Source: Chthoniobacterales bacterium
GTDB taxonomy: Bacteria; Verrucomicrobiota; Verrucomicrobiia; Chthoniobacterales; UBA10450
Direction of reading: 5' to 3'
Assembly: GCA_035635435.1 (NCBI GenBank)
Contig: DASQBB010000013.1
Span: 1,286-65,285 of the forward strand
Length of the DNA: 64,000 bases
This document shows positions 16,680 through 58,183 of the stretch, piece after piece; the stretch's first letter is position 1, and each line of letters opens with the position of its first letter. Made by a program: the position numbers and the translations under genes. The notes under the pieces are model-generated. The model made no database searches and had not been told where the DNA came from. It saw only the letters and a list, made by a program, of their open reading frames with translations.

Positions 16680-17123
16680 TCAGGCCTCGGGTTCGATCTT
16701 AATCCGAAAGTGGTAGGAGGAAATGCTCATCCGTCTGGAAAAATAGAAACGATGGGCGTCGAAACGCTGCACTCCGGAATCGAGCTCGAGATTTTCGCAG
16801 CCATGTTCGCGCGCCTGTTGGATTAACCAATCCAATAACTCACCGCCAAATCCACCAGAGCGGTCGCTCTCGCGCGTGACCAGATCGTCCACGTAAAGAA
16901 ATTTTCCAGAGAAGAGCGATTCAAGAAAGCGATAACCGGCGACGGCGCGCACGTCGCCGTCGGACTCGACGAACGCGAGCAAATACCCTTGTTGCTGCTG
17001 ACGCTGAACGCGCTCGATAAATTGTTCCGGGTTTTGAAACAGCGGTCGGAGTTCCCGCATAACCGGATGACAGCGCAAGATGTCTTTAGTCGTGGTTGCG
17101 ACTGCGGTGCGCGATTTTGTCAT
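16680..17123 (-). CDS. GNAT family N-acetyltransferase
   Basis: YVDDLVTRESDRSGGFGGELLDWLIQQAREHGC is acetyl-CoA motif A. The ATG at 17123 makes an ATGA overlap with the GT2 stop. Confidence 0.75.
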   Translation of the reverse strand: MTKSRTAVATTTKDILRCHPVMRELRPLFQNPEQFIERVQRQQQQGYLLAFVESDGDVRAVAGYRFLESLFSGKFLYVDDLVTRESDRSGGFGGELLDWLIQQAREHGCENLELDSGVQRFDAHRFYFSRRMSISSYHFRIKIEPEA

Positions 17124-17833
17124 GGGATGGATGTCGATCTTTGCTCGCGTTTGCCATCGTACCAGATGTGCAACCCGTCGCGCGAACGCGCTGCGCGGGG
17201 GCCGCACAGAATTACTCGAAAGGAATTTCCCAGGATTTCGCGCGCGGAATACATGCGGAGTTTGCGACCTGAAGTAACGATTGGTTCCGGCAGAATCGTA
17301 AATCGGCCGAGCTTTCGCAGCGCCAGGCTGAAGTAAATTTCTTCGCCGACAAAAAGAGTTTCGTCGAAGCCGCCGACGGCATCGAAGTTTTTGCGCGTCG
17401 TGAAAAGGAACGCGCCGGCGCCAAAGTTAAGTCCGAAATAAAGGACAGAGAAAGCTTTGATGAAGATGCGTGACCAGAGTGGAATCGTTCCGCCGATTAC
17501 GATGCGCGCACTACCGCCCGCGCAACCTTGCTCCAGCGCCGCGATTGCACCGGCCACATGCTTCTGACTGATGTGGGTGTCGGCATCGACAAAGAGCAAG
17601 GCATCGCCCTGCGACGCGCGCGCGCCGGCGTTACGTGCAGCTGCGATCTGTCGCCTATTAATCGAAATGACTTTCGCACCGGCGTCGCGCGCGACCTGAA
17701 CAGTCATGTCAGTGGAAGCATCGTCGACTACGACGATTTCATATGGCCGATCTCGAGCAGCTTCGCGAATCGCGGCGATGGTGGACGAGAGTTCCAGCTC
17801 CTCGTTGTAAGCCGGCACGATAAACGAGAGCAC
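17120..17833 (-). CDS. Family 2 glycosyltransferase
   Basis: SFIVPAYNEE...VVVDDASTD...LLFVDADT motifs. Confidence 0.85.
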   Translation of the reverse strand: MLSFIVPAYNEELELSSTIAAIREAARDRPYEIVVVDDASTDMTVQVARDAGAKVISINRRQIAAARNAGARASQGDALLFVDADTHISQKHVAGAIAALEQGCAGGSARIVIGGTIPLWSRIFIKAFSVLYFGLNFGAGAFLFTTRKNFDAVGGFDETLFVGEEIYFSLALRKLGRFTILPEPIVTSGRKLRMYSAREILGNSFRVILCGPRAARSRDGLHIWYDGKREQRSTSIP

Positions 17834-17869
17834 GTCCTTCTGTAGCGGCGCGACTTCTCTCCCGCAACT

Positions 17870-20800
17870 TTAGTGAATGGTAATGTCGCCGGTTACTGGA
17901 TTGCCGCTGGCGGAGTAACCGTTGCTAAGATGGATCGAGAAGAAATCGTTAGTCCCCGGGTAACCGTTGTCGATCACGTCTACGGTGAAGCTCACGTTTG
18001 CTCCGTTAGCCTTGCCCTTGCCCGCGATGTGCGCCTGGTTCCCGTTGAAGGTAAGCGTGGTGATTTTGGTGGAATGGAATGAAAGCGGTGTTGCGGGATC
18101 ATCGAACATCACGTTACCGATGATCTTGGTCTTTTTCTTGAATTTCTGCAGTGCCACGCCGAGATCGAAGCTCGCCTGATTCTCGTGCGGTCCCACGATC
18201 GTACCGTGTCCATCCACATCTGTAGGTGAAGTTGCCGGAGTCGGAGTAGGTGTCGGTGTCGGGGGAGGCGTCGGAGTCGGTGTAGGAAAAGGAGTAGGAG
18301 TAGGTGTCGGCGTGGGCGTTGGGGTTGGAGTGGGTGTCGGTGTTGGAGTGGGTGTCGGTGTCGGCGTAGGAGTAGGAGTAGGAGTAGGTGTCGGGGTAGG
18401 TGTGGGCGTAGGTTGCGGCTTGCACTTCCCCGCGCCGCCCGCGTTGTAGATCGCCTTGACTTCGTCAGCACTTAGGGCGCGATTGAAGATTTCCACTTCG
18501 TCGATCAGGCCATTCCAGAAATCGGACTGTGCGCTCAACGCGCCCAAATAGTTATTGCTCGCGCCGGACAGATCGAGCGCTTCAGAGTCGCTCGCAGTGC
18601 CGGTCACTGCGCCATCGATATACAGTGTCCATGTCGATTGGGATCTCGTTAAGGCAAAGTGGTGCCACTGGTCATTCGTGTAATCGCCGAGAGACCCAAC
18701 CTGAATAGCATTGTTTCCGTTGCTGCCTCCGTTGCTGTTCCAGTAAACCCACAGACCAAAAGTGTCGTTGAAATCGAAGTCGAGGTTCCTGACTCCACCG
18801 GCCGGCGCGAAGTCGAGCGCGTACATCCGGCTCGTGCCGGTGGCGCGCGCCCAGAAATCGAATGTGAACTCGCCGGTGCCGAAGTTCCAGTCGGTGCTGT
18901 CCGGGATCGAAACGCTATCACCGTCGCCGTTGAAGCTAAATGCATCCCTTACCTCGCCCGGACCGAAACCTGCGCCGTTCAATGTGGCGTCATGACCGCC
19001 TTGGATGTCGGTCGTGTTATCATCGGCCGGCCACCAGGCAATCATATTATTCGGTGGCGAGACGCAGGGGCACTTACCCTTGCTTCCGGCGTCAAATATC
19101 TTTTGAATTTCAGCCTGACTGAGCGCGCGATCGAAGATTTCTGCTTCGTCGATCAAACCGTTCATCATATGGGTCGTGCCGACGTCGCGACCAATCAAGA
19201 GATCCGCCGTTCCGGAGAAAACAGAGGTCACGCTAGAAGTCTTGGACGCGACTTGTGCGCCGTTCACGTAGATCTTCCAATCCCCAGCATTGAATGTCGT
19301 GGCTACATGGTACCATGAACCGGTGGTGACGACTCCTGCTCCAGAGATCAGAGAGTCGAGGCTACTGCCATCGCCGCTAACATTGGAGCGAACGCTTCCG
19401 TCAGGCTGCAGATGTAACTCATAGCTACCATTTCCACTGTTAAACTTGCTAAAGAGCATCGGGAAATCGCTCAGGTCGGTTGTATTGACCCATGCATCCA
19501 ATGTGAACTTCGTGGTGACATCGAGATTGTCAGCATCCGGCACAAGAACCCCGCCATTGCCATCGAAACTAAAAGCTTGACCTACTTTGCCTGGAGAAAA
19601 GGTGACCCCGGTTTGCAGTGTGCCGTTGTTGCCGTCCTCGACGTCCATTGCGTTACCCTCAGCTGGCCACCAGCTAATCATCCCGCCGGGCGCGGGCGTG
19701 CAGGTTCGACATTTACCTGCGCTGCCTGCGCTGTAGATCGCCGCGACTTCCGAATTGCTAAGTGCGCGAGAGAAAACTTCGACTTCGTCGATCAGACCGC
19801 CGAACGGATCGCTTACTCCATCGCCTGCCATACCTATCTTGGCCGACAAGTCGTTCTCTTCAGGTGTTCCGCCGTTGTCAGCGAAGACTGACGCAGGCGC
19901 GTTAACTCCGTTGATATAGAACAGCATTTTTGGACCCTCCACCGCATTACCGTCGTAGGTCACGGCAACGTGCTGGAAGCTACCAGTCGTAACAGCGCTA
20001 TTCGTTTCGTATATTGTGAAAGCGCCATTAGTGTTGCGTACCGATGCAATCAGGTTGCCATCAGTGTTAATCTCCAAGAAGTAGCTGCGCGCGGTGTTTC
20101 CGTCGTCTTTGGAAATGATGGAGTGAGTGATCGAGAGGTTCGTGGGGTTGATCCAGGCATCGATCGTAAAAGTGACTGGAAGATCGACATCTCCAACATC
20201 GACATATTGATTGCTGCCATTAAGAGTAAATGCTTGTCGTACTTCGCCGGCGGCGAAGCCGGCGCCGTTTTCCAACGTCCCGTCGTTACCGTCCTTCGAA
20301 TCAACGGCATCGCCTTCGGCGCGCCACCAACTCACCATCCCGTCCGGCGCGGGTGTGCACGGGCATTTGCCTAAGCTGCCCGCGTTGAAAATCCGGGCGA
20401 CTTCAGTGTCGCTCAGCGCGCGATCGAACAGTTCTACTTCGTCAACGAGTCCTTTGAAATTACGGGTGTGAGTGGAATCGAACGCCCCGATAACAAAGGG
20501 CGCGGAAGTCGGCGTCAGATTTCCTGAAGAGGGACTGCCGGATGCAACCACGACTCCGTTGACGTAAAGCTTAGTGGTAGAAGTTTCAGCATTGCCATCG
20601 TAGACGACCGCAACGTGTGTCCACGTGTTAGTGGGCGGGGTAAAGTTCGCTTGGACGGCGCCGGTATTTGCTCGTCCAACCAGTACGCCCGGGTCGCCCG
20701 GTTCCCATTCGATTGCATAGCGCACAGTTCCATCGCCCGATTTACCAAAGAACCACGACTCGGTGGTGAGATCCGCGCTCGGATTGATCCACGCGTCAAT

Positions 20801-21778
20801 CGTGACCTGGCTGCCGGTTAGATTGATCGAGGCCGAGTTGCCGGCGTCAACGTAATCATCGATTCCGTCGAAGTTAAATGCCTGGCCGACTTCGCCAGGA
20901 GCGAAGGTAGCGCCTCCGATCATTCCGTTATTGTCGTCCTGACTGTCATCAGCATTTCCTTCGGCCTTCCACCAACTGATCATGCCCGCCGGAGCTGAAT
21001 CACAGCTAGCCAGACCGACGAATTCCAGCGCGTTGGCCATGATCTTTACCCCGTCGGTGGAAGAAACCCAAAAGTCGTTCCGGCTGTCGGTGGATGGCGG
21101 AAAGAAATTAAGATCCACCCGGCGATTTCCGTTGATAGTCCGGCGCGCGATCAGCGGCTCACCGTCCGACCAATCGGCCACTCGGACGGCATTCGCATTC
21201 AATATCGGATTACCGTCGCGAAAGGAGCTAGTGCCTCCGTCAAACGATGTCACGCCCGCCATTAGAGGGCTGCTCGGCTCGTAAACCGTTCCGAGCGTAA
21301 GCTGCCCGCTCCCTTGGCTGTTAGGCTCAAGGACGTAATAATCATCTGAAACGAAACGACCGCTCAGAGGAACCGATGCATCAGTGAAGACAGCGATCAC
21401 CACCCCGCCGCCGCCGTCCACGTAATCGGCGAGATTGTTGCCCAGTGCGGTTGAGTCCCCAAAGCTGCTGTCGCTCCAAACCAACACGCTTTTATACGCC
21501 AGTAATTGCGCGAGCGTCGGTGTTGTGGTTCCGGCATCAATGGTGTCCACCTGACTGAAACGACCGGTGGCGACTAACTTGGATTGCACTTCGCTTACCC
21601 ACGACGCGTTGTCCGCCGTGACCAGCGCAATCTTTGGCAAGCTCGGCGCCATTATTTTTGACGCAGTGGATTTCAACGGCGCCTTACCGAGCGCGAGCAA
21701 CGCGCAAGAAAGCGCGGTGAGCCCCACCATCGCACCAAAAGCGCGATTAATTTTCAGCCATGAGGTTATAATTTGCAT
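17870..21778 (-). CDS. Secreted 4x LamG (concanavalin A-like lectin) repeat protein, paralog 1 (1302 aa)
   Basis: Signal peptide, then an alpha/beta N-domain (IALVTAD...VLVWSD...[10 protein letters not shown]). Four ~215-aa modules each start C..AP.GM.SWW.AEG and end GLIDEVE.F.RALS..E...I..AG..GKC. A (PT)n linker follows, then a ~115-aa C-terminal domain ending GDITIH. Confidence 0.85.
18231..18418 (-). repeat. (Pro-Thr)n linker coding repeat in paralog 1
   Basis: In-frame ACN-CCN dinucleotide-codon repeat giving PTPTPT...[19 protein letters not shown]. Confidence 0.9.
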
Positions 21779-21862
21779 AATCGGTCTCCTGTTTTGATTG
21801 CGGAGGAATCAACTGAGCCGCGGGCAGCCAGAGAATTATTTTGGAACGCGCGCCTGTGCGCT

Positions 21863-21971
21863 GGGGTCATTCCGCGCTGAAAAGAAAAAATCATTTGAGC
21901 GCGCCGAAGTTCGGCGCTGCCGGAGCGATTCTTGCGTGAATATGCGTGATGCGGTCAAGCTTTTTCCGCAA
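21863..21971 (-). promoter_or_regulatory. Conserved promoter/leader block upstream of paralog 1
   Basis: Shared with 30537-30646. Minus-strand TTGACC (21958-21953), a 19-nt diverged spacer, then AAGAAT (21933-21928). A leader follows with the palindrome gcgccgaa-g-ttcggcgc (21901-21917). Confidence 0.35.
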
Positions 21972-22059
21972 GAGGCGAGACACGAATTGCACTAATTTTC
22001 ACGAATTTCTTCGTCAGATTGGTGCCGATTCGTGTAATTGGTGTCTCACTCGCCGTCTC

Positions 22060-22108
22060 TGAATTTTACGTCCGGCTTTTTGCACTTCGCGATAAGGCAG
22101 AAGCCAGA
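22060..22108 (-). pseudogene. Relic of the 3' end of a VOC/glyoxalase gene
   Basis: tgaattttacgtccggctttttgcacttcgcgataaggcagaagccagac aligns with the last codons and stop of the intact VOC gene at 32762-32812. Confidence 0.55.
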
Positions 22109-22160
22109 CCCGCCTCCGTCAAGACTTCGGCGCGGCAAGCAGAGCGAGGCGGCTACAACT

Positions 22161-25100
22161 TTAGTGAATGGTAATGTCGCCGGTTACTGGATTGCCGCTG
22201 GCTGAGTAACCGTTACTGAGATGGATTGAGAAGAAGTCGAGTGTGCCGGGTGAGCCGTTGTCGATCGCGTCTACGGTGAAACTCACTCTCGCCTTCCCAT
22301 TCTTGCCGGCGCCCGCAATGTGAGCCGAGTTACCATTGAAAGTGAGCGTGGTCACCTTGGTTGTGCGAAACGAGATACCAGAAGCAGGATCGTCGTAGCC
22401 GAGGCCGCCGATGATCTTGGTTTTGTTTTTCACCATCTGCAGTCGCACATTGATGGAGAAAGTGCCCTCGGTCTCGTGTGGGCCAAGAATGGTACCGTTG
22501 CCGTCGACATCCTGAAGCGTATTAACCGGAGTTGCAGTCGGTGTCGGTGTCGGGGGAGGCGTAGGAGTTGGTGTAGGAAAAGGAGTTGGAGTTGGTGTTG
22601 GGGTAGGAGTTGGAGTAGGCGTCGGCGTGGGCGTTGGCGTCGGGGTAGGTGTCGGTGTAGGCGTAGGCGTGGGCGTCGGAGTAGGCGTGGGCGTGGGAGT
22701 AGGAGTTGGAGTTGGTGTCGGCGTGGGCGTTGGGGTTGGGGTTGGAGTAGGAGTCGGTGTCGGTGTCGGGGTAGGAGTTGGAGTCGGCGTCGGCGTCGGC
22801 GTAGCTTGAGGTTTGCACTTACCCGCGCCACCAGCGTTGTAGATTGCTGCGATTTCTTCATCGCTCAGGGCGCGGTTGAACAATTCAACTTCGTCAACCA
22901 ATCCATTAAAGAATTCCTGGCTGCTTTCGTTCGTGGGATTTTCGTGATGGCCTATTTCGAGAGGACCAGAGGTGCTGGGAAGAATTAGTCCACCTTTTTC
23001 GACGCTGTTATCAAGCACGCCGTTGATGTAAACCTTTGCGATCGCGAGATTGCTGTCATACGTGCCAGCGATGTGATACCAAACATTGTCCTGGATCGTA
23101 GTGTTCGATAAGACGACGTCTTCCCACGAGCCGGTATTAAAAGCGAAATCGACCTGGCGCGTCTCCGACAGGACGATCAATCCATAACGGAGATTGTCAC
23201 AACAGCCCGGGTTCGTGTCGGTTTGCTTAAGCAGAACAATGCAGTTGTCAGTGCAATTGCCCTTCTTCATCACCCATGCGTCAATGCTGATAGCGGCCTG
23301 AATGTTTTGATTGATGTTGTGCGGGATAGTGACGTATCCGCTTGATCCATCCAAGCTGAACGCTTCGCCGACCTCGCCATTCGCGTAGGTGGCACCGCCT
23401 ACCAGCATGCCATGATTGTTATCTTGATAATCGAACGGGTTAAGATCCGCCGGCCACCAGCTGACCATGCCCGACGGTGGCGGTGTGCAGGGGCACTTAC
23501 CTTTGCTGCCGGCGTCGTAGATTTTTTGAACTTCGTTCTTAGTCAAAGCCCGCCCGAAGGCTTCCGCTTCGTCAATCAAGCCGATGAAATTGGCGCTGGC
23601 GCCATTTGAACCGAGGAACAGGTCGTCAGTGCCTGGAAAGACCGAAGAGGTGTTGAACGTGTCTGATCCGACTACGGCACCGTTTACGAAAAACTGCACC
23701 GACCCGGCATCGAAGGTCACGGCCACATGTTGCCACTGGTTGGCGGAGACGACGCCGGCAGCGGTGCTGCGTGAATCATTAGTCGAGCCGTCGCTGCTGA
23801 TGTAGAGGCGAAGGCTACCGTCGCTGAATACATCGAATTCGTAACTAATCGACGTGCCCGAGCCGTTGATCTTGCTAAAGAGAATCGCGGTGGTCAAAGG
23901 ATTGGGATAAATCCATGCGTCGAGAGTAAACGCACTCGTAAAGTGGAGATTGTTCGCATCAGGGACCCTCACTACTCCATTATTAGACCCATCGAACTGA
24001 AAGGCCTGACCTACTTCGCCCGGCGCAAAAGTCACACCAGTGCCCACTGTCCCATTGTTGTTGTCCTCACTGTCGCTGGCGTTGCCTTCGGCCTTCCACC
24101 AACTGATCATTCCACCGGGAGCGACTGTGCAAGATCGACATTTACCCGCGCCGCCGGCGGCATAGATGGCCGCGACTTCGGAATCGCTAAGTGCGCGGTT
24201 GAACACTTCGATCTCATCGAGCAACCCGTGGAAAAAGTGTTGCACGCCGGCGCGAGTGCCAAATGCAAGCACGCCTGTGCTTGGACTGCGCGTGGCCGGG
24301 GCCGAGGCGGCAAGCGTGCCGTTAATGTAGACCTTCACGGTACTGCCATCGAATGTTTGCGCGACGTGAAACCACTGATTCAAAGGCACGCTGCCGTTGG
24401 CCGTACTAAACGATGTTCCATTAACGATGCTGAGAAGATTTTGATCGGGCGCATAAATGAAGATGGAATAGCTATCTTCGCCGCCTGAATCCTGAGTTTT
24501 GACCAGTAAGGCATCGTGACTCGATCCGTTAATCAACCCTTTCCAATAAACCCAGATGTCAAAACTATAGGCGGCGTTTGGATCCGGAAAACTATCCACC
24601 GTTACCGTCTGGCTCGTCCCGTTGAAGCTCATCGCCTGGTTCACCTCGCCCGCTTCAAACGTCGGCCCGCCGTTAACCGGTGTTCCGTTATGACCACCTT
24701 GTCTGTCGTCGAGATTCCCCTCGCCCGGCCACCAACCGGTCATTCCATCCGGTGCCGGTGTGCACGGACATTTGCCGTTGCTGCCCGCATTGAAAATTCG
24801 AGCAACTTCAGTCCCGCTCAGCGCGCGCTCGAACACTTCGACCTCATCAACGAGTCCGTTGAAATTACGCGTGTGGCTGGAATCAAATGCGCCAATCACA
24901 AATGGGACCGACGAGCTTGATAGATTTCCTGAAGAGGGGCTTCCAGAAGCCACCACCACTCCGTTGACGTAGAGAGTCGTCGTGGGATTGGCATTGCCAT
25001 CATAAACGACGGCAACGTGTGTCCATGTGTTAGCGGGCGGAGTAAACGTAGCTTGGACGCTGCTTGTATTTGCGCGTCCAACTAAAGAGCCCGATTCCCA

Positions 25101-26357
25101 TTCGATCGCATATCGTACGGCGCCCTCGCCGTCTTTGCCGAAGAACCAGGACTCAGTCGTGAGCGGCGAGCTCGGGTTGATCCAGCCATCGATGGTTACC
25201 TGACTGCCGGTCAGATTCAGCGAATTCGGATTGCCGACATCAACATAGTCGTCCACGCCATCGAAACTAAATGCCTGGCCGACCTCCCCACCGGCAAAAG
25301 TAGCGCCTCCGATCGTGCCGTTGTTATCGCCTTGACTGTCTTTGGCATCTCCTTCGGCTTTCCACCAGCTGACCATGCCCGCCGGAGCACCGACGCAAGA
25401 CGTGGCGGCCACACCTTGGTCAAAATCACACTGACTATTAACTGTGTCGGTGACCTGGATGGTGGTCGTAAATTGCCCGGCCGTCTGATAAGTGTGCGTT
25501 CCCGAAACCGTGTAGGGTCCGGTGCCGGGACCGCCACTCACAACTCCGGTTGTCGTCGGCGTGCCATCGCCCCAGTCGATCGTGGCCGTGAAATTAGTCG
25601 CGACGGCATCGTTTCTTAAGGAAGTAAAAGTCGCGACTGGTCCGTTGAAATTATTGCCAACGGCAGATTGAAACGTGGCGGCCCTGACAACGAGATCAAA
25701 GGTGAAACTGTACTCGGTGCCGGGAGCGGGAACAGTGTGGCAAGCGACCGGCAGGGTGTATTGGCTGCCGGTGTCTCGTTGGACGCCGATTCCACCAATG
25801 CCACTGCTTATGCTCCCATAGATGAAATCGATTCGCGGGCAACCTTCACGGAGCCGGACCTCGAAATTCACGACCGGCGGTCCAGAGCTGCAACAGTACT
25901 GCGTTCGCCATTCGATATTGAAAATTCGGTTGGGCGCCGAGCCGCTCACCGATGTGAAAATGCCCTGGCCACTGCCAGAGTCGCGCGTATACAAATCTGT
26001 CCAGCCCGGAGCGATCAAATTATTGGCGGAACTGTCCGGCACGCAGACCGTGCAGCAACTTTCGCCCGAGGTGAAATACAGGTTTCCGTTCGAGTACACT
26101 ACCGCGCTGGTGAAAACTTGGTCGTAAAATGTCACCGAAAACGGCAACGTGATTCCGGTCCCGCAATCGTCACAATGATTGCCAACGTCGGTATCGCCGG
26201 GCACGATCCGCGCACCGGTACCCGTGACTGCGGTATAATCCGGTGGCGGCACAGCTTTTGCCGCAAGCAAACCAAACACTGCTACCGCGACGATGACCTT
26301 GGCAGCGCGCGCGTTCTGCGCCGCAATCGACTTCGCCCGCTCATATGGGTGCGCCAT
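22161..26357 (-). CDS. Secreted 4x LamG repeat protein, paralog 2 (1398 aa), with a different N-terminus (Cys-rich NIDO-like plus PKD-like)
   Basis: N-terminus [27 protein letters not shown]...IAPGWTDLY, then the PKD-like IDWGDGT...YTVSGTHTY...IQVTD. It has the same 4 LamG modules, the longest PT linker and the same C-terminal domain. Confidence 0.85.
22531..22806 (-). repeat. (Pro-Thr)n linker coding repeat in paralog 2
   Basis: The longest of the four tracts. Its + strand shadow is the MGVGVGV... ORF at 22627-22809. Confidence 0.9.
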
Positions 26358-26544
26358 TTACGAGTGTCGAAGGGTCGACGACTCTGGGATCATTATTGTC
26401 CGATTGCGCTCGATGGGGTCAAGTTTTTTCGGCGAGGACGAAAACAGGAAATCGCTCGCACGCTTTCGTTCTTTAGTGTTTCGTTCGGCGGCTCGGAAGC
26501 CGCCGCTCCTTGTTATGCGACGCTCATAGAGCGCCGCTACAAAA

Positions 26545-29500
26545 TCAGTGAATGGTAATGTCGCCGGTTACTGGATTACCGCTGGCGGAGTAACCGTTAC
26601 TCAGATGGATTGAGAAATAGTCGTTGGTGCCGGGATAGCCGTTGTCGATCGCGTCCACGGTGAAGCTCACGTTTGCTCCGTTAGCCTTGCCCCTGCCCGC
26701 AATGTGCGCCTGGTTTCCGTTGAAGGTAAGCGTAGTGACTTTCGTGGAATGGAATGAAAGCGGGGTTGCCGGATCATCGAACATCACGTTACCGATGATC
26801 TTGGTCTTTTTCTTGAATTTCTGCAGTGCCACGCCGAGGTCGAAGCTGGCCGCACTCTCATGCGGCCCCACGATCGTCCCATGTCCATCCACATCAGTCG
26901 GTGAAGTTGCCGGAGTCGGAGTAGGTGTCGGTGTCGGGGGAGGCGTCGGAGTCGGTGTAGGAAAAGGAGTAGGAGTAGGTGTCGGCGTGGGAGTAGGAGT
27001 TGGAGTTGGTGTCGGCGTGGGCGTTGGGGTTGGAGTGGGAGTCGGGGTCGGCGTTGGGGTAGGTGTCGGAGTGGGAGTTGGAGTAGGCGTCGGGGTAGGC
27101 TGAGGTTTGCACTTACCCGCGCCGCCCGCGTTGTAGATAGCGGCGACTTCATCGGCGGTCAGGGCGCGGTTGAAAATTTCTACTTCATCGATTTTGCCAT
27201 TGAAGAACTGATCGATGCCACCGCGGCTGCCAATAGCTTTGGTATTGCCACCGTCGTCAGGTATCGCTCCCGAAGTCGCCCGGGTAGTGGGATCCTGAAC
27301 GCCGTTGATGTAAAGCCGCGCCGTTTCGCCGTCCCAGGTCAACGCCAAATGCGTCCACTGATTCGCCGGAATGGTGTTCGTGCTGTCGGCGCTGCCGCTA
27401 GCTGAATTATTGATGGCAAAACGAACCTGTGCCGTCGGTGTCAGTTGGATCCACCAGATGTTGGTCGGGCCGGGATAGATGATGCCTTGGTAATCGGAGA
27501 AGCCGGTTGGATAAACCCACGCATCGATCGTGACTTGCGTGAAGCCGCCGAGGAGGTTTTGCGCACCCAGATCGACATATCCAGTAGTGCCATTGAAGCT
27601 AAATGCCTTTTCAACTTCGCCACTGGAAAAGGACGTGTTTCCCTGCAGTGTGCCATCGCGGCTATCCTGAATGTCATTCGCGTTTCCATCCGCCGGCCAC
27701 CAATTGACCATGCCTTCCGGAGGGTTAGTGCAGGCGCACTTACCCGCGCTGCCGGCGTCGTAAATTTTTTGAACCTCGGCTTGGGTCAATGCTCGATCGA
27801 ACATTTCAACTTCGTCAATGATGCCGGCGAAGTTGTCGTAGAATCCACTCGTCTCGCTGTCGCCAATGACGAAGCGAGCGGTGTCAACGTTCAAGGTATC
27901 GCTCCCGAATACTTGCCCGACTTGTTCGCCGTTCGCGTAAAGTGTCATTTCGCGACTCTCACCATTATTTCGCAACGTGAGTGCAACGTGGGTGAACTGA
28001 TTGGCCTGAATAACGCCCGGATTCGAGCAAACATTCAAGACGTCGCTATTGAGATACCCGCAGAGCGAGCCGTCCTTTTTGATTTGCATGCCAATTCGAT
28101 TGAAGAGGGCAGTGCCCTTTTCAAAGACCACCGGACCGGTGACCTGATCGAGGTTGAGCGTGCTTGGATTTATCCAGGCATCGAGCGTGATCTCGGAGTT
28201 CGTCGGCGGAGTCTGGTTAACGCCGACCGAATCATCATTCCCATCGAGACTGAAACCTTGATCGACTTCGCCGGCTCCAAAGGTTGCGCCGTTCTGAAGC
28301 GTGCCGTCGTTGTGACCAATCACGTCAGCGGTGTTTCCATTGCCCGGCCACCACCCGGCCATTCCGCCGGGCGCGGGAGTGCAGGCTCGACATTTACCGG
28401 CGCCGCCGGCGGTGTAGATGGCCGTGATTTCGTCGGCGCTCAGGCCACGGTCGAATACTTCTACTTCATCAATCAAGCCAGTGAAGAAGAGACCGCCCGA
28501 TCTGCCGCCAATCGTAAATGATTCGCCGGAGTCATCGATGGTTCCACTAAAGGAGGTTGAACCGACATTTGCGCCGTTGGCGTAAACCGTCATTGTGTCT
28601 CCATCATAGGTCAGCGCCACATGGGTCCAGGCGTTAACCGGCGGAAAATAACCGGTGTTAATTTCGTGCTCGGTTCCGCCCGTTTTTATTATTGCAACGA
28701 GTTGGCAGGTTGGGCCGAAGATACAGAGCAGGGTATAGTCGTTGCCGCCCGACTGGGACTTGCCAAAATAGTTAGCCTCGTTCGTATCTGACGGATTTAT
28801 CCAGCCATCAAGGGTGACTTGGCCGCCAATGTTGATAAGATTTGAAGGCCGTCCTGCATCAGCGAAGCCACTTCCATTGAAGCTGAATGCCTGTCGGACC
28901 TCACCAGCACCAAAGGTCGCGGGACCAAGCGATAAATTATTCTGGCTAACGATATCGTCGCCGTTGCCGTCTCCTGGCCACCAGCTGATCATGCTATCCG
29001 GCGCGGGTGTGCACGGGCATTTGCCTAAGCTGCCCGCGTTGAAAATCCGGGCGACCTCAGTGTCGCTCAGCGCGCGATCGAACAGTTCTACTTCGTCAAC
29101 GAGTCCTTTGAAATTACGGGTGTGAGTGGAATCGAACGCTCCGATGACAAAGGGCGCGGAAGACGCCGTCAGATTTCCTGAAGAGGGGCTGCCGGATGCA
29201 ACCACGACTCCGTTGACGTAAAGCTTAGTAGTAGAAGTTTCAGCATTGCCATCGTAGACGACCGCAACGTGTGTCCACGTGTTAGTGGGCGGGGTAAAGT
29301 TCGCTTGGACGGCGCCGGTATTTGCTCGTCCAATCAGGGTGCCCGGGTCGCCCGGCTCCCATTCGATTGCATAGCGCACGGTTCCATCGCCCGATTTGCC
29401 AAAGAACCACGACTCGGTGCTGAGGTCCGCGCTCGGATTGATCCACGCGTCAATCGTGACCTGGCTGCCGGTTAGATTGATCGAGGCCGAGTTGCCGGCA

Positions 29501-30456
29501 TCAACGTAATCATCGACGCCATCAAAGCTAAATGCCTGGCCGACTTCGCCAGAGACAAACGTGGCACCGCCGATCGTACCGTTGTTACCGCCTTGACTGT
29601 CATCGGCATTGCCTTCCGCTTTCCACCAACTGATCATGCCGGCTGGAGCTGAATCGCACGAGGCCAGGCCGACGAATTCGAGCGCGTTGGCCATGATCTT
29701 TACGCCATCGGTAGAAGAAACCCAAAAGTCACTCTGACTGTCGGTCGATGGCGGAAAGAAATTAAGATCCACTCGGCGATTGCCATTGATGGTTCGGCGC
29801 GCGATCAGCGGCTCACCGTCCGACCAATCGGCCACTCGGATTGCGTTCGCATTCAATATCGGATTACCGTCGCGAAAGGAGCTGGTGCCGCCGTCAAACG
29901 ATGTCACGCCCGCCATGAGTGGGCTGCTCGGCTCGTAAACCGTTCCGAGTGTAAGATGCCCGAGCGTGTCGCCGTTAGGCTCGAGGACGTAATAATCATC
30001 AGATACAAAACGGCCGCTCAGAGGAACAATTGCATCCGTGAAGACAGCGATCACCACCCCGCCGCCGCCGTCCACATAGTCGGCGAGATTGTTGCCGAGT
30101 GCTGTGTCGTCGGCAAAACCACTATCGCTCCAGACGAGGATACTCTTATAGGCGCGTAATTGATTGGCCGTTGGCGTGGTTGAACTTGCATCAATAATGT
30201 CCACCTGACCGAACCGGCCGGTCGCGATCAATTTTCCCTGAACCTCGCTCACAAATGAAGGGGCGTCCGCCGCCACAAGCGCGATCTTGGGCAAGCTCGT
30301 CGCCGGTAGTTTTGGCGCGGACGGTTTGATCGAGACATGCGTGCTCGATTTCGACGGCGCTTTACCGAGCGCGAGCAGCGCGCAGAAAAGCAGAGTAGTC
30401 GTGACGGTTGCACCAAGCGTTCGATTAATTTTCAGCCACGAGGACAACAATTTCAT
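26545..30456 (-). CDS. Secreted 4x LamG repeat protein, paralog 3 (~1303 aa from Met50 of the tracked ORF)
   Basis: [18 protein letters not shown] aligns with the [18 protein letters not shown] start of paralog 1. The N-domain, module 1, PT linker and C-domain are nearly identical to paralog 1. Modules 2-4 are divergent. Confidence 0.85.
26911..27100 (-). repeat. (Pro-Thr)n linker coding repeat in paralog 3
   Basis: In-frame PT repeat. Confidence 0.9.
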
Positions 30457-30536
30457 GGGTGCTTCTTTTGCCTTGAACTGCCGCCAACGAATCGATCGGC
30501 GAAGATCGACATCTCGCGCGACACGCGCTTGCGCGT

Positions 30537-30646
30537 CGGGGTCATTCCGCGCTGAAAAGAAAAAATCATTTGGGCCCGCCGAAATTCGGCGCTGCCGCAG
30601 CAATTCTTGTCCGACTTCGCCCTACGCGGTCAAGCTTTTTCCGCAA
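30537..30646 (-). promoter_or_regulatory. Conserved promoter/leader block upstream of paralog 3
   Basis: Minus-strand TTGACC (30633-30628), a 19-nt spacer, then AAGAAT (30608-30603). The hairpin cgccgaa-a-ttcggcg lies at 30577-30591. The hexamers are conserved while the spacer differs from the paralog 1 copy. Confidence 0.35.
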
Positions 30647-30764
30647 AACGAAAACGCAAATCTGCTGAGATTCCTCGCACAAAGGGCACGACGGACACAA
30701 CGAAATATTAGCTTTTCCTTTGTGGGCCTTTGTGCGCTTGGTGCGAGCTTTGATTTCTCCGCAA

Positions 30765-30840
30765 ACTTCACGCCCGCTTTTTGCACTTCGCGATAAGGCG
30801 AAAGCCAGGCTAGCGATTCATCATGAAGATCGCACGTTGT
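30765..30840 (-). pseudogene. Relic of the 3' end of a VOC/glyoxalase gene
   Basis: acttcacgcccgctttttgcacttcgcgataaggcgaaagccaggctagcgattcatcatgaagatcgcacgttg aligns with 32768-32843. In the VOC frame it now contains a stop (QRAIFMMNR*). Confidence 0.6.
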
Positions 30841-30844
30841 TCTA

Positions 30845-32740
30845 CTACCTTTTCTTCACTGTTACCGTGAAAGTCTTGGTAGCGTTGTTGCCGCAATTAT
30901 CGCTCGCCGTCACGGTCACTGTCGTGGTTCCAATCGGGAAGAAACTGCCCGATGCCGGGTTGGCGATGGCTTGAACCGGGCCGTTTTCAGGATCGTTGGC
31001 GCTAACGTTGAAGAAAACGAAGGCGCCTTTCTGACCACCAACTCTCTTTCTCTGCGCCTTGGTCACGATATCGCCCGGAACCGTGATGACCGGCGGATTG
31101 GTGTCGCAGGTCGGAGTTGATGTGGGCGTTGGTGTTGATGTTGGCGTCGCAGTCGGTGTTGGCGTCAGCGGGGGTGTGGCCGTCGGTGTTGGTGTGGGCG
31201 TCGGACCGACAGCAGCAAAGACATCGACTCGGCCCCATCCAAAGACGTTATTTGGTGTTCCTGAACTGCTGCAAGCGGTGGAATTGATTTGAACGGCGGA
31301 GTTGTTCAACCTCGCTTCGGTCGCGTTGACATCGTGCCGCAGATCCGGCCGCGCTGACCAGAGCAAGGCGACTGCGCCGGCGATGTGCGGGGTCGCCATC
31401 GAAGTCCCGCTAAGAGATGCATATGCGGTATCAGATGTGTTGTAACTGGAGCGCGTGCTTGTGCCGGGCGCGGTGATATCGGGTTTTGTGCGGTTGCTGC
31501 CATCCACTGTAACGGGGCCGCGGCTACTAAAAGAAGCGATTGTGTCTGACCCGGTATTTAGCGCCCCGACCGTGTAGGAGGCGTCATAAAGGGAAGGCGG
31601 ATCGACGATCGTAGAACAGCCCGGTCCGGAATTGCCGGCCGCAACCACCATCACGATTCCAGCAGCGCGTTGACCTTCGACTGCGGATTGTAAGGTGTTC
31701 ACTGAACAACCTTCCGAGGGCGGACAACCCCACGAATTGATCGTGGCGTCGGGAGCTTTGGCCGGATCACCTTGACTTGGGTTACCGTTTACCGGGTACG
31801 GTGCGAGGAAGAATTCCATGCACTCGATGTATCGTGCCGGCGTGCCGTCGCCCTGGTCCATGTTACGGCAACCGATACCTTTGGCTTGGGGCGCCATCCC
31901 GATCTTATTGCCGCCGCCGTCATCGCCAATGGCAGTTCCGAGAGTGTGTGTGCCGTGACCGGAATCGTCGCAAGGAAACGGCGAATCGTTGCCGCACGGG
32001 TTGAGCGTGCTGCCGTGGATCGAGTCGTGCCAGTTGTAATCGTGGTTGGCGGTAACTCCGTCCCAACCGCGGTAATGCGGCTTGATTGCATTGTGCGTCC
32101 AGCGGAAACCAGTATCTGCCCCGGCTACGACTATGCCTTGGCCGAAGAAGCCAAGCGCCCAGACTTGAGGCGCATTAGTATAATTGATGCCCGGTTCAAT
32201 CGTCGCGGGTGCGCTCGGCTGTGACGGCGCTTCAACAGCGCCCAAACCTTGCGGGAAATTTTGGATGTGCGGATTGCCCTCGACCCGCGCCACTTCCGCT
32301 CGCGCGGCCAGCTCCTCGACGATCGAGCGGTCACCTTTCACCCAAAGCGCATTGACGATGTAAAACGAGCGGTGCTCGATTCCGCGCTCACTCAGCCATT
32401 GCCGAATCGGAGCTTGGGTGGTCTGACTCTTATTCCACAACTCGTCGCGAACGTAGCGACTCTTTTCGCTTTTGGTCGACATCGCCGCTGCCTGACTCAA
32501 GTCGGCTTGATCGGCGAGCACAACGATGAATTCGGCCTGCTGTCCATTGGTCGTGTGCTCTACCACCCACGGCGCAATCTTCGCCCCAACCGCCTGCTCG
32601 TTCGGCCAGTCGGCCGGATTTGTAGCGCGAGAAGGACTTATTGCCGCGAGCGCCACTACCGCCGCTGCCCCAAGGAACAATGAGCAAAAGATGCGTCGCC
32701 ATCCTGGCGGCGTAAATGGGCGCTTTGTGTTAATGATCAT
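30845..32740 (-). CDS. Secreted subtilisin-like S8 peptidase with an I9 propeptide, a T/P-rich linker and a C-terminal HYR-like domain
   Basis: Catalytic triad contexts VVAGADTGF, HGTHTLGT and SGTSMATPHIAG. Linker [31 protein letters not shown]-terminus CDTNPPVITVPGDIV...TVTVTASDNCGNNATKTFTVTV. Confidence 0.9.
   Translation of the reverse strand: MIINTKRPFTPPGWRRIFCSLFLGAAAVVALAAISPSRATNPADWPNEQAVGAKIAPWVVEHTTNGQQAEFIVVLADQADLSQAAAMSTKSEKSRYVRDELWNKSQTTQAPIRQWLSERGIEHRSFYIVNALWVKGDRSIVEELAARAEVARVEGNPHIQNFPQGLGAVEAPSQPSAPATIEPGINYTNAPQVWALGFFGQGIVVAGADTGFRWTHNAIKPHYRGWDGVTANHDYNWHDSIHGSTLNPCGNDSPFPCDDSGHGTHTLGTAIGDDGGGNKIGMAPQAKGIGCRNMDQGDGTPARYIECMEFFLAPYPVNGNPSQGDPAKAPDATINSWGCPPSEGCSVNTLQSAVEGQRAAGIVMVVAAGNSGPGCSTIVDPPSLYDASYTVGALNTGSDTIASFSSRGPVTVDGSNRTKPDITAPGTSTRSSYNTSDTAYASLSGTSMATPHIAGAVALLWSARPDLRHDVNATEARLNNSAVQINSTACSSSGTPNNVFGWGRVDVFAAVGPTPTPTPTATPPLTPTPTATPTSTPTPTSTPTCDTNPPVITVPGDIVTKAQRKRVGGQKGAFVFFNVSANDPENGPVQAIANPASGSFFPIGTTTVTVTASDNCGNNATKTFTVTVKKR
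31111..31206 (-). repeat. Thr/Pro-rich linker coding repeat in the S8 peptidase
   Basis: Same kind of ACN-CCN repeat as in the LamG paralogs. Confidence 0.8.
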
Positions 32741-32764
32741 GGTTGGTGAGTGCTCTGTGTTTGT

Positions 32765-33169
32765 TTAGAATTTTACACCGGCTTTTTGCATTTCGCGATA
32801 CGGCAAAAGCCAGATGAGCGATTCATCGTGAAGATCGACAACCTGGATCCGGTTGCCCCAGGGATCGTGAAAGTCGCAGCGGAAGGGCGGCTCGAGTTTG
32901 AGTTTATATTTGCCGGTTAATTTCTTTCTGACTTCTTCGAGCTGTTCTTCATCGCGCACCATGATTCCGAAATGGCGCACGTTGGCCGGCTGCACTTTCT
33001 CGACTTCAAAGATGGCGAGGAACTGGTGCTCGCCGAGCTTGAAGAAGGCATCGCCTTCGCCTTCGTCGAGTTTTTCCAAATTAAAAACGTCTTGATAAAA
33101 CACGACCGCCTTCTCGATGTCGTCGACTTCGATTGCGACGTGATTGCAGCCGTAAACTTGCACGCTCAT
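32765..33169 (-). CDS. VOC (glyoxalase/bleomycin resistance/dioxygenase) family protein
   Basis: GCNHVAIEVDDIEKAVVFYQDVFNL...HFGIMV...FHDPWGNRIQVV. Confidence 0.85.
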   Translation of the reverse strand: MSVQVYGCNHVAIEVDDIEKAVVFYQDVFNLEKLDEGEGDAFFKLGEHQFLAIFEVEKVQPANVRHFGIMVRDEEQLEEVRKKLTGKYKLKLEPPFRCDFHDPWGNRIQVVDLHDESLIWLLPYREMQKAGVKF

Positions 33170-33576
33170 TCTTTGAGTCGCTCCAAAGTCTTGATCAGTT
33201 CGGCGCTGCGGCTGCGGATCTCTTTCCGGTGCACGGTGGCCAGTTCTTCAATCATCTTCTCTCCTTTTGCGGTGAGCTGAACGTGGCGCCGGCGCCGATC
33301 CGTCTCGCCAGCTTCGCGCGTGATGAATTTTCTTCCGACCAAGCGGTCGACGATGTTGACGGCGGAGTGATGTTTTATCTGAAGCCGCTCGCTCAACTGA
33401 GAGATCGTAAGTCCTCCGACTGACGTAAACGCTTTGATGGCCAGGAGCGCCTCGTACTGCTCGGGGCTGAGATCTCCGTTGGTCTTTAGGAAATCTTTGC
33501 TGAAACGGAGAAACTTGCGAAGCAGGTAGCGAAAATTCGCCAGCGCATCGTAGTCGTCGGGATCAAGTCGTAACAT
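33166..33576 (-). CDS. MarR family transcriptional regulator
   Basis: The winged-HTH region reads LSPEQYEALLAI...GLTISQLSERLQIKHHSAVNIVDRLVGRKFITREAGETDRRRRHVQLT. It overlaps the VOC start by 4 nt. Confidence 0.85.
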   Translation of the reverse strand: MLRLDPDDYDALANFRYLLRKFLRFSKDFLKTNGDLSPEQYEALLAIKAFTSVGGLTISQLSERLQIKHHSAVNIVDRLVGRKFITREAGETDRRRRHVQLTAKGEKMIEELATVHRKEIRSRSAELIKTLERLKE

Positions 33577-33658
33577 GCGACTCCCCGTCAGATTTCGCCT
33601 TACTAACTATCGAGCGTCGATACATTGGCATGCCGGCTGCTATTCTTTTCTATATCTC

Positions 33659-33670
33659 TATATATATATA
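33659..33670. repeat. (TA)6 dinucleotide tract
   Basis: tatatatatata runs into the ATG of the pilin-like gene, in the MarR/pilin divergent spacer. Confidence 0.9.
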
Positions 33671-34071
33671 TGAATACATCCGCCGCCAAGTCGCACCAAG
33701 GCTTCACCCTCGTCGAGATCATGATCGTGGTCGCCATCATCGCACTGCTCGCCGCTATCGCCGTGCCCGGGTTTCTCCGTGCCCGCAAGCGCTCTCAGGC
33801 TAGCCGCATCTTGAACGACCTGCGGATGATCGATTCGGCGGTGGACCAATATGCTATCGAAACAAATCGCAAAACCGGTGATGCCGTGGGCGTCGCGGAT
33901 TGGACCAATTATCTCAAGAAAGGTTCGCTCCTTTATAATAACGGAAACAGCTTGCTCGGGACCGCTTACGGCTCACAAACCGTCGACACACTCCCGCAAG
34001 TGCCGCCGGCCGATTACACTGTCTTGTCCGACGTGGCCGCGACTGGTTTCTGGTCGCCTTACGGACCATAA
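33670..34071 (+). CDS. Prepilin-type N-terminal cleavage/methylation domain protein (type II/IV pseudopilin-like)
   Basis: HQGFTLVEIMIVVAIIALLAAIAVPGFLRARKRSQ. I chose the ATG at 33670. Confidence 0.8.
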   Translation: MNTSAAKSHQGFTLVEIMIVVAIIALLAAIAVPGFLRARKRSQASRILNDLRMIDSAVDQYAIETNRKTGDAVGVADWTNYLKKGSLLYNNGNSLLGTAYGSQTVDTLPQVPPADYTVLSDVAATGFWSPYGP

Positions 34072-34142
34072 CGCGATTCAGTTCGGCAAAATTTAAGGCG
34101 CAAATTTTCTTCGACGGCTAGATTTCTGCTTTTCCAAAGGTC

Positions 34143-34616
34143 ATGGATCGGCAAGCGACCATCGATCAATTGGAACAACTTCTTCCGCTGGCGGCGCAGT
34201 GGGCGGCACAACAGGAACGGCACGTTCTCTGCGAAGGCGTCCGTCTTTCTGAAATCGAATTGGCCGACGCTAGAGCGATCGGTGTGCGCAATCCGGAGCG
34301 GGTCCGTTTGTTGCGGGTCGACGCCGTCCCGGTTCCGGCGCATCCAATGCTGCGGGCGGCGGCCGCTTCAATTAATTTTCTGACTGCCGCGCCACGCGGT
34401 CTGGCTTTGGAATATGGAATTTTTGTTCGCGCTGATCACTGGCGTGATCGCGCGCTCATTGCGCACGAGCTTGTGCACACCGCGCAATTTCAAAGGCTCG
34501 GCGGCATTCTACCATTTCTTCAGACTTACATTTTCCAGTGCGCAATCGTCGGCTATCCGAACGCGCCTTTGGAACTGGAAGCGATCGCGACCGCAGCGCG
34601 GATTTGTCCGGATTAA
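34143..34616 (+). CDS. Small HExxH zincin-like protein (resembles the DUF4157 core)
   Basis: YGIFVRADHWRDRALIAHELVHTAQFQRLG. The family assignment is from memory of the DUF4157 pattern (..LLAHELTHVVQ). Confidence 0.4.
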   Translation: MDRQATIDQLEQLLPLAAQWAAQQERHVLCEGVRLSEIELADARAIGVRNPERVRLLRVDAVPVPAHPMLRAAAASINFLTAAPRGLALEYGIFVRADHWRDRALIAHELVHTAQFQRLGGILPFLQTYIFQCAIVGYPNAPLELEAIATAARICPD

Positions 34617-54997: not shown

Positions 54998-55426
54998 TTA
55001 AGTGCTGTCAGTGCCCTTTCCCTGAGTTCGTTTTTGTAAACGTTCATCGGCTTCGAGGATGGCTGCCATATCCTGCAAGGAAAGAGTCCCCTTGTTTTTG
55101 AACGCAAGAGCCCTCTCAGGACCGCCGGCCTTCAAGAACCTGGCGAACGCTATAAGTACGTGTTCTGGTTTTTGATCGGACCATTGCGCTCCGGGCGTCT
55201 CCGCTATACGAAGGGATTCTTTTTTTTCATCAGCAACTCGCATCCATGCGAGGCGCTCATGCTTGTCATGGGCCGCTATAATTGCATCCATCTTCTGCAG
55301 GAGCGCATCGATATCGATCCCGCGATCTTGTAGCTCGATTCTCAACTGATCGGACGAGAGGGCATCCGACTGTTGATCCAATCCGTTCAATAGATTCTCC
55401 ATTGGACCTGGCTCATCATTCGTCAT
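54998..55426 (-). CDS. Hypothetical acidic 142-aa protein
   Basis: I recognise no motif. Its stop abuts the ImmA start and its start lies 1 nt after the sigma-like stop. Confidence 0.5.
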   Translation of the reverse strand: MTNDEPGPMENLLNGLDQQSDALSSDQLRIELQDRGIDIDALLQKMDAIIAAHDKHERLAWMRVADEKKESLRIAETPGAQWSDQKPEHVLIAFARFLKAGGPERALAFKNKGTLSLQDMAAILEADERLQKRTQGKGTDST

Positions 55427-55427
55427 T

Positions 55428-56081: not shown

Positions 56082-56210
56082 TTGGGGGGACCATTGGGTT
56101 CTCTCAGTAAACGCTCCGGATGAAAAGTTTTTTGGAAGATTTTTCCAGAAATCTCTGATTTCGGAGCGGAAGAAGGTGAGCGCGGACAACCCCGCCTCCT
56201 TTAACCTACT

Positions 56211-58182: not shown

Positions 58183-58183
58183 G

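Follow-up and report, generated by a model that had tools for sequence, protein, structure and literature searches.

Shuffled LamG modules in three giant, predicted secreted proteins of a Chthoniobacterales bacterium

Three giant genes follow one another on the minus strand of a 64,000-nucleotide stretch of DNA from a Chthoniobacterales bacterium (GenBank assembly GCA_035635435.1, contig DASQBB010000013.1, positions 1,286 to 65,285; the whole stretch is called the window below). Each appears to encode a secreted protein with four laminin G-like (LamG) modules that are alike at their edges and different inside. How did one locus come to hold so many different modules, and what might such proteins do? 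Few bacteria are more abundant in soil than Chthoniobacterales and their relatives, which are mostly uncultured, and how they attach to polymers or capture them is poorly known. The answer reached here has two parts. The diversity of the modules is old and came about by the shuffling of whole modules; it was not generated in place. The proteins themselves are probably multivalent, lectin-like binding proteins of the cell surface or matrix, diversified by duplication and module shuffling, an explanation held with fair but far from full confidence.

Three genes and their LamG modules

The genes, here called A, B and C, were found as a sequence-only reading of the window had described them, as three consecutive open reading frames (ORFs) on the minus strand, and they are reproduced in two other assemblies. 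Lengths and positions within proteins are given in amino acids (aa), and PT stands for Pro-Thr.

17870..21778, minus strand: gene A, 1302 aa, with a signal-peptide-like N-terminus, a ThuA-like head, LamG modules of types E-F-H-A, a (PT)20 linker and a post-COAP-1 domain
22161..26357, minus strand: gene B, 1398 aa, with a signal-peptide-like N-terminus, a Cys-rich domain, a PKD-like domain, LamG modules E-?-H-?, a (PT)36 linker and a post-COAP-1 domain
26545..30456, minus strand: gene C, 1303 aa from its ATG, with a signal-peptide-like N-terminus, a ThuA-like head, LamG modules E-I-V-W, a (PT)22 linker and a post-COAP-1 domain

The mechanical ORF of gene C extends further, to a TTG at 30603. 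The 126 nucleotides (nt) that precede the ATG match the non-coding DNA upstream of A at 84% identity, and in two other assemblies C was independently called at 1303 aa as well, so the gene is taken to start at the ATG and the longer, TTG-initiated ORF is unlikely to be real. Two assemblies were aligned to the window. One matches it at 99.956% identity over 20,405 bp (L005, 9 mismatches and 0 gaps) and the other at 99.971% over 20,714 bp (L010, 6 mismatches and 0 gaps). Since each reproduces about 20 kb without a gap, PT runs included, an assembly artefact or collapsed repeat is ruled out.

As read from the sequence, the N-termini of A, B and C begin with an n-region containing Lys or Arg, continue with a hydrophobic stretch of some 19 residues, and have A-L-G or A-K-A ahead of the mature protein, which suggests that all three are exported by the Sec pathway. 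A lipoprotein signal was also considered, and was rejected on the same kind of reading: the conserved Cys25 lies within the hydrophobic core and is preceded by Phe in C and in two homologues (L002 and L003_g1), which leaves no lipobox.

Each protein had been said to carry four LamG or concanavalin A-like modules. Pfam finds Laminin_G_3 (PF13385) in four stretches of each of A, B and C, with expect values (E) of 1e-107 to 1e-115 and scores of 357-381 bits against a gathering cut-off of 27.6. A profile built from the 12 window modules also matches solved LamG structures, with 4qvs at E 4.5e-25 and 5hon at E 4.9e-18, and it matches neurotoxin Hc-N, pentraxin, pappalysin and sialidase lectin domains. 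Together the Pfam and profile matches uphold the four-module plan. TafC family fimbrial protein (NF052521) was tried as an alternative assignment and dropped, at 122-175 bits against a cut-off of 410, with the LamG part alone aligning (approximately model positions 185-367). The modules are placed as follows.

20363..21004, minus strand: A module 1, type E (aa 259-472)
19709..20359, minus strand: A module 2, type F (aa 474-690)
19070..19702, minus strand: A module 3, type H (aa 693-903)
18422..19066, minus strand: A module 4, type A (aa 905-1119)
22815..25397, minus strand: B modules 1-4 (aa 321-530, 532-740, 743-955 and 957-1181)
27109..29658, minus strand: C modules 1-4 (aa 267-480, 482-689, 692-907 and 909-1116)

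Each module is bounded by its first and last Cys, and neighbouring modules are separated by one or two residues. The junctions read CPC, CRTC, CRSC, CRAC and CAC, so both the shared edge-strand motifs and the Cys-x-Cys or Cys-xx-Cys junctions are present as had been said. When modules of different types are compared, identity is 56% in the frames and 27% in the interiors. The modules had also been counted as 12 related but distinct kinds. Their interiors do differ strongly, but the number of kinds comes down to about nine, as module 1 is shared by A, B and C (80-94% identity) and A3 and B3 form a second close pair (58-59%), with all other pairs at 33-46%.

The frame is not peculiar to this locus. 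A total of 127 proteins were examined, made up of 120 listed matches, the three proteins of the window and four giants from related genome loci, and a hidden Markov model built from the 12 window modules finds 2-8 full-length modules in 87 of them. Per-column conservation in the window modules follows that in 275 modules of other proteins with r = 0.88. The family consensus is a module of about 211 positions which starts C.pPP. and ends.EI.aIYnAGSAGKC, and the 365 homologues found at E<=1e-10 are mostly multi-LamG_3 proteins from metagenome-assembled genomes (MAGs) of Verrucomicrobiota and Acidobacteriota. What had been called a constant scaffold is the consensus of this widespread, Cys-bounded LamG_3 subfamily.

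The closest known relatives can be compared with the window on this basis. Multi-LamG_3 proteins of Verrucomicrobiota and Acidobacteriota (such as P0003, P0020 and P0118, and those of loci L001-L003) share with the window the Cys-bounded module of about 211 positions, its frame consensus and module types; they hold 2-8 modules each, and L003 also shares the PT linker and the post-COAP-1 end. They differ in their heads and tails (Flg_new_2, DUF11, Lectin_C), and the exact module combination and the three-gene tandem with an S8 peptidase were seen solely in the window population. The members of this family are uncharacterised. Among solved structures, 4qvs and the LamG domain of the Geobacillus arabinanase AbnA (5hon/5ho0) have profile homology to the window modules over most of the module, including the ...G.IDE..IF.RALS..E... 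end. These are single domains, whereas the window modules stand in tandem arrays, and the 4qvs alignment spans profile positions 17-201, without the N-terminal C..PP.GM.SWW..EG strand and the AGSAGKC end of the window modules.

Module types, shuffling and the A/C mosaic

Modules were typed by single-linkage clustering at 55% identity, and the 313 modules fell into 54 multi-member types and 116 singletons. The typed proteins had been retrieved with A as the query. Outside the window, arrays read A-G-Al-A, M-G-E-A, G-A-Az, Aa-M-Ak-A, Ak-Al-E-F, A-G-H and H-K-W. Ten of the 12 window modules resemble a module from another genome (55-100% identity) more than they resemble any non-equivalent module of the window itself (about 40%), and the module from the other genome often sits at another array position. 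A4 is 78% identical to module 4 of L002 and A3 is 77% identical to module 1 of P0002, while C4 is 80-81% identical to module 3 of both P0002 and P0087, and A1 is 55% identical to module 3 of L002. A type A module also comes last in L001, L002 and L003_g2.

Within a type, the interior is conserved as much as the frame or more, with identities of up to 91-92% across genomes. In the comparison of C module 4 with P0087 module 3, for example, the interior is 91% identical and the frames 67%. Conservation of interiors by type across genomes fits type-specific binding functions. The proposal of a diversified binding repertoire on a constant scaffold can now be divided: the architecture and the distinct, type-conserved interiors stand, and the parts that fall are a scaffold specific to the locus, given the correlation reported above, and diversity made in place, given that the types are old.

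Genes A and C offer a view of how an array may be changed. Their heads have a nucleotide identity of 65-97% and a synonymous divergence (dS) of 0.61, and their first modules are 92-100% identical over most of their length with a dS of 0.23. At aa 473, a CxC junction, identity falls sharply, and modules 2-4 are saturated. Over the final 34 aa of module 4 identity returns, and it is kept in the linker and the C-terminal domain as well (dS 0.40). The ratio of nonsynonymous to synonymous divergence (dN/dS) is 0.07-0.15 in the shared segments, which indicates purifying selection. This mosaic is consistent with a gene that was duplicated and whose internal modules were then replaced, whether or not gene conversion also took part, at breakpoints lying in the conserved frames, and from the pattern of identity it is plausible that the frames mediate the recombination.

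A very different source of variety would be targeted hypervariation, in which a diversity-generating retroelement, or strong diversifying selection acting in place, alters the interiors on a fixed scaffold. Conserved frames with divergent interiors are what such a process would leave, and they are its sole support. The within-type conservation and the low dN/dS of the alignable segments both speak against it. There is no reverse transcriptase among the ORFs scanned, which included every ORF long enough to encode one, and there is no pair of template and variable repeats in 17000-33700, where the direct repeats are those between the paralogous genes and the PT runs alone. The 6-9 substitutions per 20 kb that separate near-identical strains are not reported to cluster. 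For lack of a reverse transcriptase and a template repeat, and in view of the purifying selection, a retroelement or other targeted hypervariation was ruled out, and this whole line of explanation is regarded as highly improbable. Shuffling of old module types is what the arrays of the window record.

Heads, linkers and C-terminal domains

The modules are set between variable heads and a uniform tail, which bear on where the proteins go and whether they could be enzymes.

21005..21646, minus strand: A head domain, with a ThuA-like or class I glutamine amidotransferase (GATase1)-like fold (aa 45-258)
29659..30300, minus strand: C head domain, ThuA-like, 87% identical to the A head (aa 53-266)
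25695..26252, minus strand: B Cys-rich head domain, with no Pfam or NCBIfam model (aa 36-221)
25398..25694, minus strand: B PKD-like domain (aa 222-320)
18224..18421, minus strand: A Pro-Thr linker with the (PT)20 run (aa 1120-1185)
22515..22814, minus strand: B Pro-Thr linker with the (PT)36 run (aa 1182-1281)
26899..27108, minus strand: C Pro-Thr linker with the (PT)22 run (aa 1117-1186)
17873..18223, minus strand: A post-COAP-1 domain, NF041523 at 64.6 bits (aa 1186-1302)
22164..22514, minus strand: B post-COAP-1 domain, NF041523 at 57.2 bits (aa 1282-1398)
26548..26898, minus strand: C post-COAP-1 domain, NF041523 at 61.4 bits (aa 1187-1303)

The A and C heads have no Pfam or NCBIfam match, and for the A head no Pfam family appears even at E<=10. 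The structure of the A head was predicted with AlphaFold2 (AF2) from an alignment of Planctomycete homologues, with a predicted local distance difference test (pLDDT) score of 94.6 and a predicted template modelling score (pTM) of 0.92. The best Foldseek matches of this model are the ThuA-like structures 4jqs and 4pxy (template modelling score 0.67-0.69, E 2e-7 to 4e-7), followed by GATase1 domains. The A and C heads are also 39-51% identical to repeats in proteins of Phycisphaerae (Planctomycetes) annotated as ThuA (PF06283). Compared with ThuA-like proteins, then, the head shares the predicted fold, but it is without a Pfam match of its own and without Cys, and it is fused to a LamG array. 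Cys is absent from aa 26-258 of A and from aa 26-266 of C, so the GATase1 nucleophile is lacking and the heads are not active amidotransferases.

The Planctomycete relatives form a group worth describing for itself. These proteins of Phycisphaerae and Planctomycetota (P0043-P0117) are about 720-780 aa long and have three tandem ThuA-like domains followed by a dockerin-like or EF-hand-like GDFNGDG..D.DF tail, and they are apparently uncharacterised.

The head of B had been read as a Cys-rich, NIDO-like domain followed by a PKD-like one. It is Cys-rich, but NIDO was not detected, and at E<=10 the sole Pfam match is a chance one to dCache_1. Its homologues, which have no Pfam annotation over this domain, are widespread in proteins of Acidobacteriota and Verrucomicrobiota. 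A search gave 572 matches at E<=1e-3, in which the domain is fused to PEP-CTERM, dockerin, CarboxypepD_reg, Kelch or PKD, and its roughly 185 aa are a candidate for a new domain family. The PKD part of the claim is weakly borne out: the segment scores 18.8 bits against a gathering threshold of 23.5 and, with a second PKD model, 16.7 against 27, both below threshold, while many homologues at about 50% identity are annotated as PF00801 or PF18911.

A Pro-Thr linker and a C-terminal domain of about 115 aa had been seen in all three proteins, and both are there; the domain belongs to the NCBIfam family post-COAP-1 (NF041523), whose curated cut-off is 40 bits, and the matches cover model positions 2-114 of 115. 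This changes the meaning of a further claim, that the proteins have no C-terminal anchor. A, B and C do end in ...GDITIH with no hydrophobic tail or transmembrane helix, and Pfam and NCBIfam scans of the three found no PEP-CTERM, LPXTG or type IX secretion system (T9SS) C-terminal domain. But the last 117 aa are a domain that nearly always forms the extreme C-terminus of diverse secreted proteins. An exhaustive search for the domain, made for its architectures because a word-indexed search had returned fragments on contigs broken at PT repeats, gave 739 clusters at E<=1e-3. In 115 of the 150 best matches it ends at most 3 residues from the C-terminus of the protein. Its partner domains are extracellular, among them TSP_3, Kelch propellers, Big_1, HYR, PKD, cadherin and LamG_3. 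Because it stays at the C-terminus while its passengers vary, post-COAP-1 is a candidate for a sorting role, or for one in retention or export.

The family is named for following choice-of-anchor P (COAP, NF040603). The window proteins, like other members, carry post-COAP-1 at the extreme C-terminus and well above the cut-off, but choice-of-anchor P was not detected in them. It was found in one of the 66 members examined, so the domain model does not depend on it. A long PT spacer is likewise uncommon, standing before the domain in 6 of those 66, and seems to be a feature of the lineage rather than of the family. The AF2 model of the domain from A (pLDDT 91.7) is all-beta, with nine beta strands. 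A search of the literature on post-COAP-1 found nothing. The nearest known systems, the T9SS C-terminal domain and PEP-CTERM, resemble it in logic alone, as conserved C-terminal elements on unrelated secreted proteins with adhesin-type passengers; there is no sequence match between them, and post-COAP-1 has no transmembrane helix.

Public metagenome assemblies usually break at repeats which encode (PT)n, and post-COAP-1 appears there mostly as orphan "proteins" of 80-125 aa (P0121-P0170) on contigs of about 0.5-5.5 kb, with one of 20.9 kb. Contig breaks of this kind probably mask the true architectures of this family in databases.

Could the giants instead be freely released proteins that act as enzymes or assist them, with LamG modules serving as carbohydrate-binding modules that target the ThuA-like head, or partner enzymes such as the S8 peptidase, to polymers, and not as surface adhesins? 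LamG-type domains are accessory to glycoside hydrolases, and the second-best match in the PDB is the arabinanase AbnA (5hon/5ho0). PT linkers are a typical feature of enzymes secreted to break down polysaccharides. A, B and C show no known anchor motif. Relatives of the ThuA-like head occur in Planctomycete proteins that end in dockerin-like tails, and the island also includes an S8 peptidase whose linker is of the same style. Against these points stand the heads themselves, which are without Cys and so without a GATase1 nucleophile in A and C, are not ThuA-like in B, and are swapped freely in syntenic homologues. Pfam and NCBIfam scans found no hydrolase, lyase or other catalytic family in A, B and C, and four different modules per protein are more than is usual for substrate targeting. 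On balance released enzymes or their helpers are considered an unlikely explanation, and surface or matrix binding proteins remain the preferred one.

The accessory island and the likely role of the giants

The three genes lie with the S8 peptidase between flanking genes that are conserved among related genomes. A MarR gene, a VOC gene and an S8 peptidase with the same style of linker had been placed upstream on the same strand, which is confirmed, and the peptidase was found to carry a HYR domain as well.

30845..32740, minus strand: S8 subtilase, with a HYR domain at its C-terminus and a PT-rich linker, part of the island, absent from the syntenic loci L001-L003
32765..33576, minus strand: VOC/glyoxalase and MarR genes, the conserved upstream flank
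17120..17833, minus strand: GT2 glycosyltransferase, the conserved downstream flank

The window as a whole is core chromosome, with genes for RpoA, ScpB, PNPase, S15, DnaK, GroEL and ThyA, and the closest genomes are MAGs of Chthoniobacterales and Verrucomicrobiota. Flanking proteins are well conserved in L001 (PNPase 96%, VOC 93%, histidine kinase 92%, MarR 78% and GT2 76% identity) and in L003 (PNPase 94% and VOC 87%). The number of giants between VOC and GT2 is one in L001, two in L003 and three in the window, where the S8 peptidase lies with them. The syntenic giants are about 50% identical to those of the window and differ in their heads and tails, which carry Flg_new_2, DUF11, Lectin_C or post-COAP-1; the C-type lectin domain (Lectin_C) is an extra domain of L003_g1.

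The VOC-GT2 site was surveyed in 80 related metagenome loci, 36 of which were too short to classify. VOC lies directly beside GT2 in 28 loci, a gene with LamG or the C-terminal domain lies between them in 5, unrelated cargo of cytoplasmic enzymes is found in 8, and 3 have neither VOC nor LamG upstream. The giants and the S8 peptidase are an accessory island in a conserved neighbourhood, and related genomes hold zero, one, two or three giants. The presence of other cargo makes the junction a general variable spot and not a LamG-specific one. As contigs break at PT repeats, the frequency of LamG giants at the site is probably underestimated. A foreign origin was looked for in the composition and was rejected, since the island and its flanks have an even GC content (0.545-0.569) and show neither a tRNA nor an integrase signal.

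Several observations were made in and around this neighbourhood. Seven of the surveyed loci (L046, L047, L049-L051, L069 and L089) have 1.7-3.2 kb of cargo between VOC and GT2, comprising GNAT, short-chain dehydrogenase and QueA-like genes and, in some, a second VOC-like gene. Beside MarR and divergent from it is a plus-strand gene pair at 33625-34616. Its first gene is pseudopilin-like (148 aa, prepilin-type N-methylation) and weakly resembles GspG, PilA and Verru_Chthon cassette protein D, and the second encodes 157 aa and has no family; both keep their synteny in L001 and L003, at 78-88% identity. Further away, at 54212-58645, GC content dips to 0.517. This segment has a gene for an IrrE/M78-like peptidase (54212-54997, minus strand), two small genes without an assignment, and on the plus strand ORFs of 92 and 117 aa, a ThiF/E1-like protein of 451 aa (56827-58182) and an ORF of 153 aa. 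The cluster may represent a small cassette for ubiquitin-like conjugation or of a defence type.

The accessory nature of the island bears on one more explanation, that the giants are structural proteins of the envelope or matrix, such as an S-layer-like coat or a biofilm scaffold, in which the LamG modules act chiefly as stiff spacers or as units of self-association and have no distinct external ligands. The best match in the PDB, 4qvs, is annotated as an S-layer domain-containing protein, the build with its very short junctions between modules is rod-like, and the copy number at the one locus is high. The type-specific interiors, strongly conserved across genomes despite shuffled arrays, argue instead for type-specific functions, and a locus that is absent in many close relatives would be unusual for an essential coat. 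A purely structural role is therefore judged quite improbable.

Each gene also seems to have its own promoter. The motif GAAAAA[G/A]CTTGACC[G/C]C, followed by a hexamer of the AAGAAT or GACAAT type, has three matches in the window against 0.03 expected, solely upstream of A, B and C, and it is also found upstream of the L001 giant. A conserved sigma-70-like promoter is predicted for each of the three genes from these copies.

21951..21966, minus strand: promoter-like element upstream of A, GAAAAAGCTTGACCGC then AAGAAT
26415..26430, minus strand: promoter-like element upstream of B, GAAAAAACTTGACCCC, with GACAAT 16 nt further
30626..30641, minus strand: promoter-like element upstream of C

The leaders of A and C (21865-21926 and 30540-30601, minus strand) have in common a terminator-like GC hairpin, GCGCCGAAnTTCGGCG, with a T-run, right after the -10 hexamer. 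A regulatory RNA in these leaders was considered and rejected, with fold z-scores of -1.5 and -0.3 and no Rfam match.

Taken together, the favoured explanation, that of multivalent, lectin-like surface or matrix binding proteins, would work as follows. Each giant would be expressed from its own sigma-70-like promoter and exported by way of its Sec-type signal peptide. Its head would be ThuA-like and non-catalytic in A and C, and Cys-rich and PKD-like in B. In each of the four jelly-roll modules the first and last Cys would form a closing disulfide, and the short junctions between modules would make the array a fairly stiff rod. The array would then bind polysaccharides or glycoconjugates multivalently at the cell surface or in the extracellular matrix, while post-COAP-1 would provide retention or export and the Pro-Thr spacer would keep the binding array away from it. 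Diversity would come from tandem duplication and from replacement of whole modules out of an old pool of types, with the conserved frames as the likely sites of recombination. Lectin-like binding is suggested by the roles of LamG and concanavalin A-fold domains in sialidases, pentraxins, neurotoxins and glycosidases, and by Lectin_C in a homologue.

Several points weigh against this picture. Lectin-like binding of A, B and C is argued wholly by analogy with what the fold does elsewhere. Recombination at the frames is read from a single mosaic pair, A and C, and the longest exact nucleotide matches between non-equivalent junctions are 26 and 20 nt. B modules 2 and 4 have no relatives among the typed proteins, which may be an effect of sampling with A as the query, and the contig breaks at PT repeats bias the island counts. 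As for the C-terminal domain, its model has no significant fold match in the PDB (best E 0.14, with small up-and-down barrels as weak look-alikes), and no partner sorting enzyme, sortase or translocon, was found for it.

The window proteins belong to a widespread, uncharacterised family, and all of their domain families are catalogued or widely present in databases. A search of the literature on Laminin_G_3 in Verrucomicrobia found it mentioned only as a generic carbohydrate-binding module. What this locus adds is the module vocabulary and its shuffling, the island context, the identities of the heads and tails, and post-COAP-1, flagged here as a possible C-terminal domain for sorting or retention whose predicted fold is unmatched. 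Two linked ideas that go further are put forward tentatively, as doubtful but worth stating: that in soil Verrucomicrobiota, Acidobacteriota and other phyla post-COAP-1 serves as a C-terminal module for export or retention which has so far gone unrecognised, and that the LamG frames are built-in recombination sites by which combinatorial surface lectin arrays are drawn from a shared pool in an accessory hot spot. The locus leaves current concepts unchanged. It is a clean, assembly-verified example of secreted LamG arrays built from a reusable vocabulary of modules, and the reusable module types, together with an island that varies between close relatives, suggest surface interactions which may be specific to a niche or strain.

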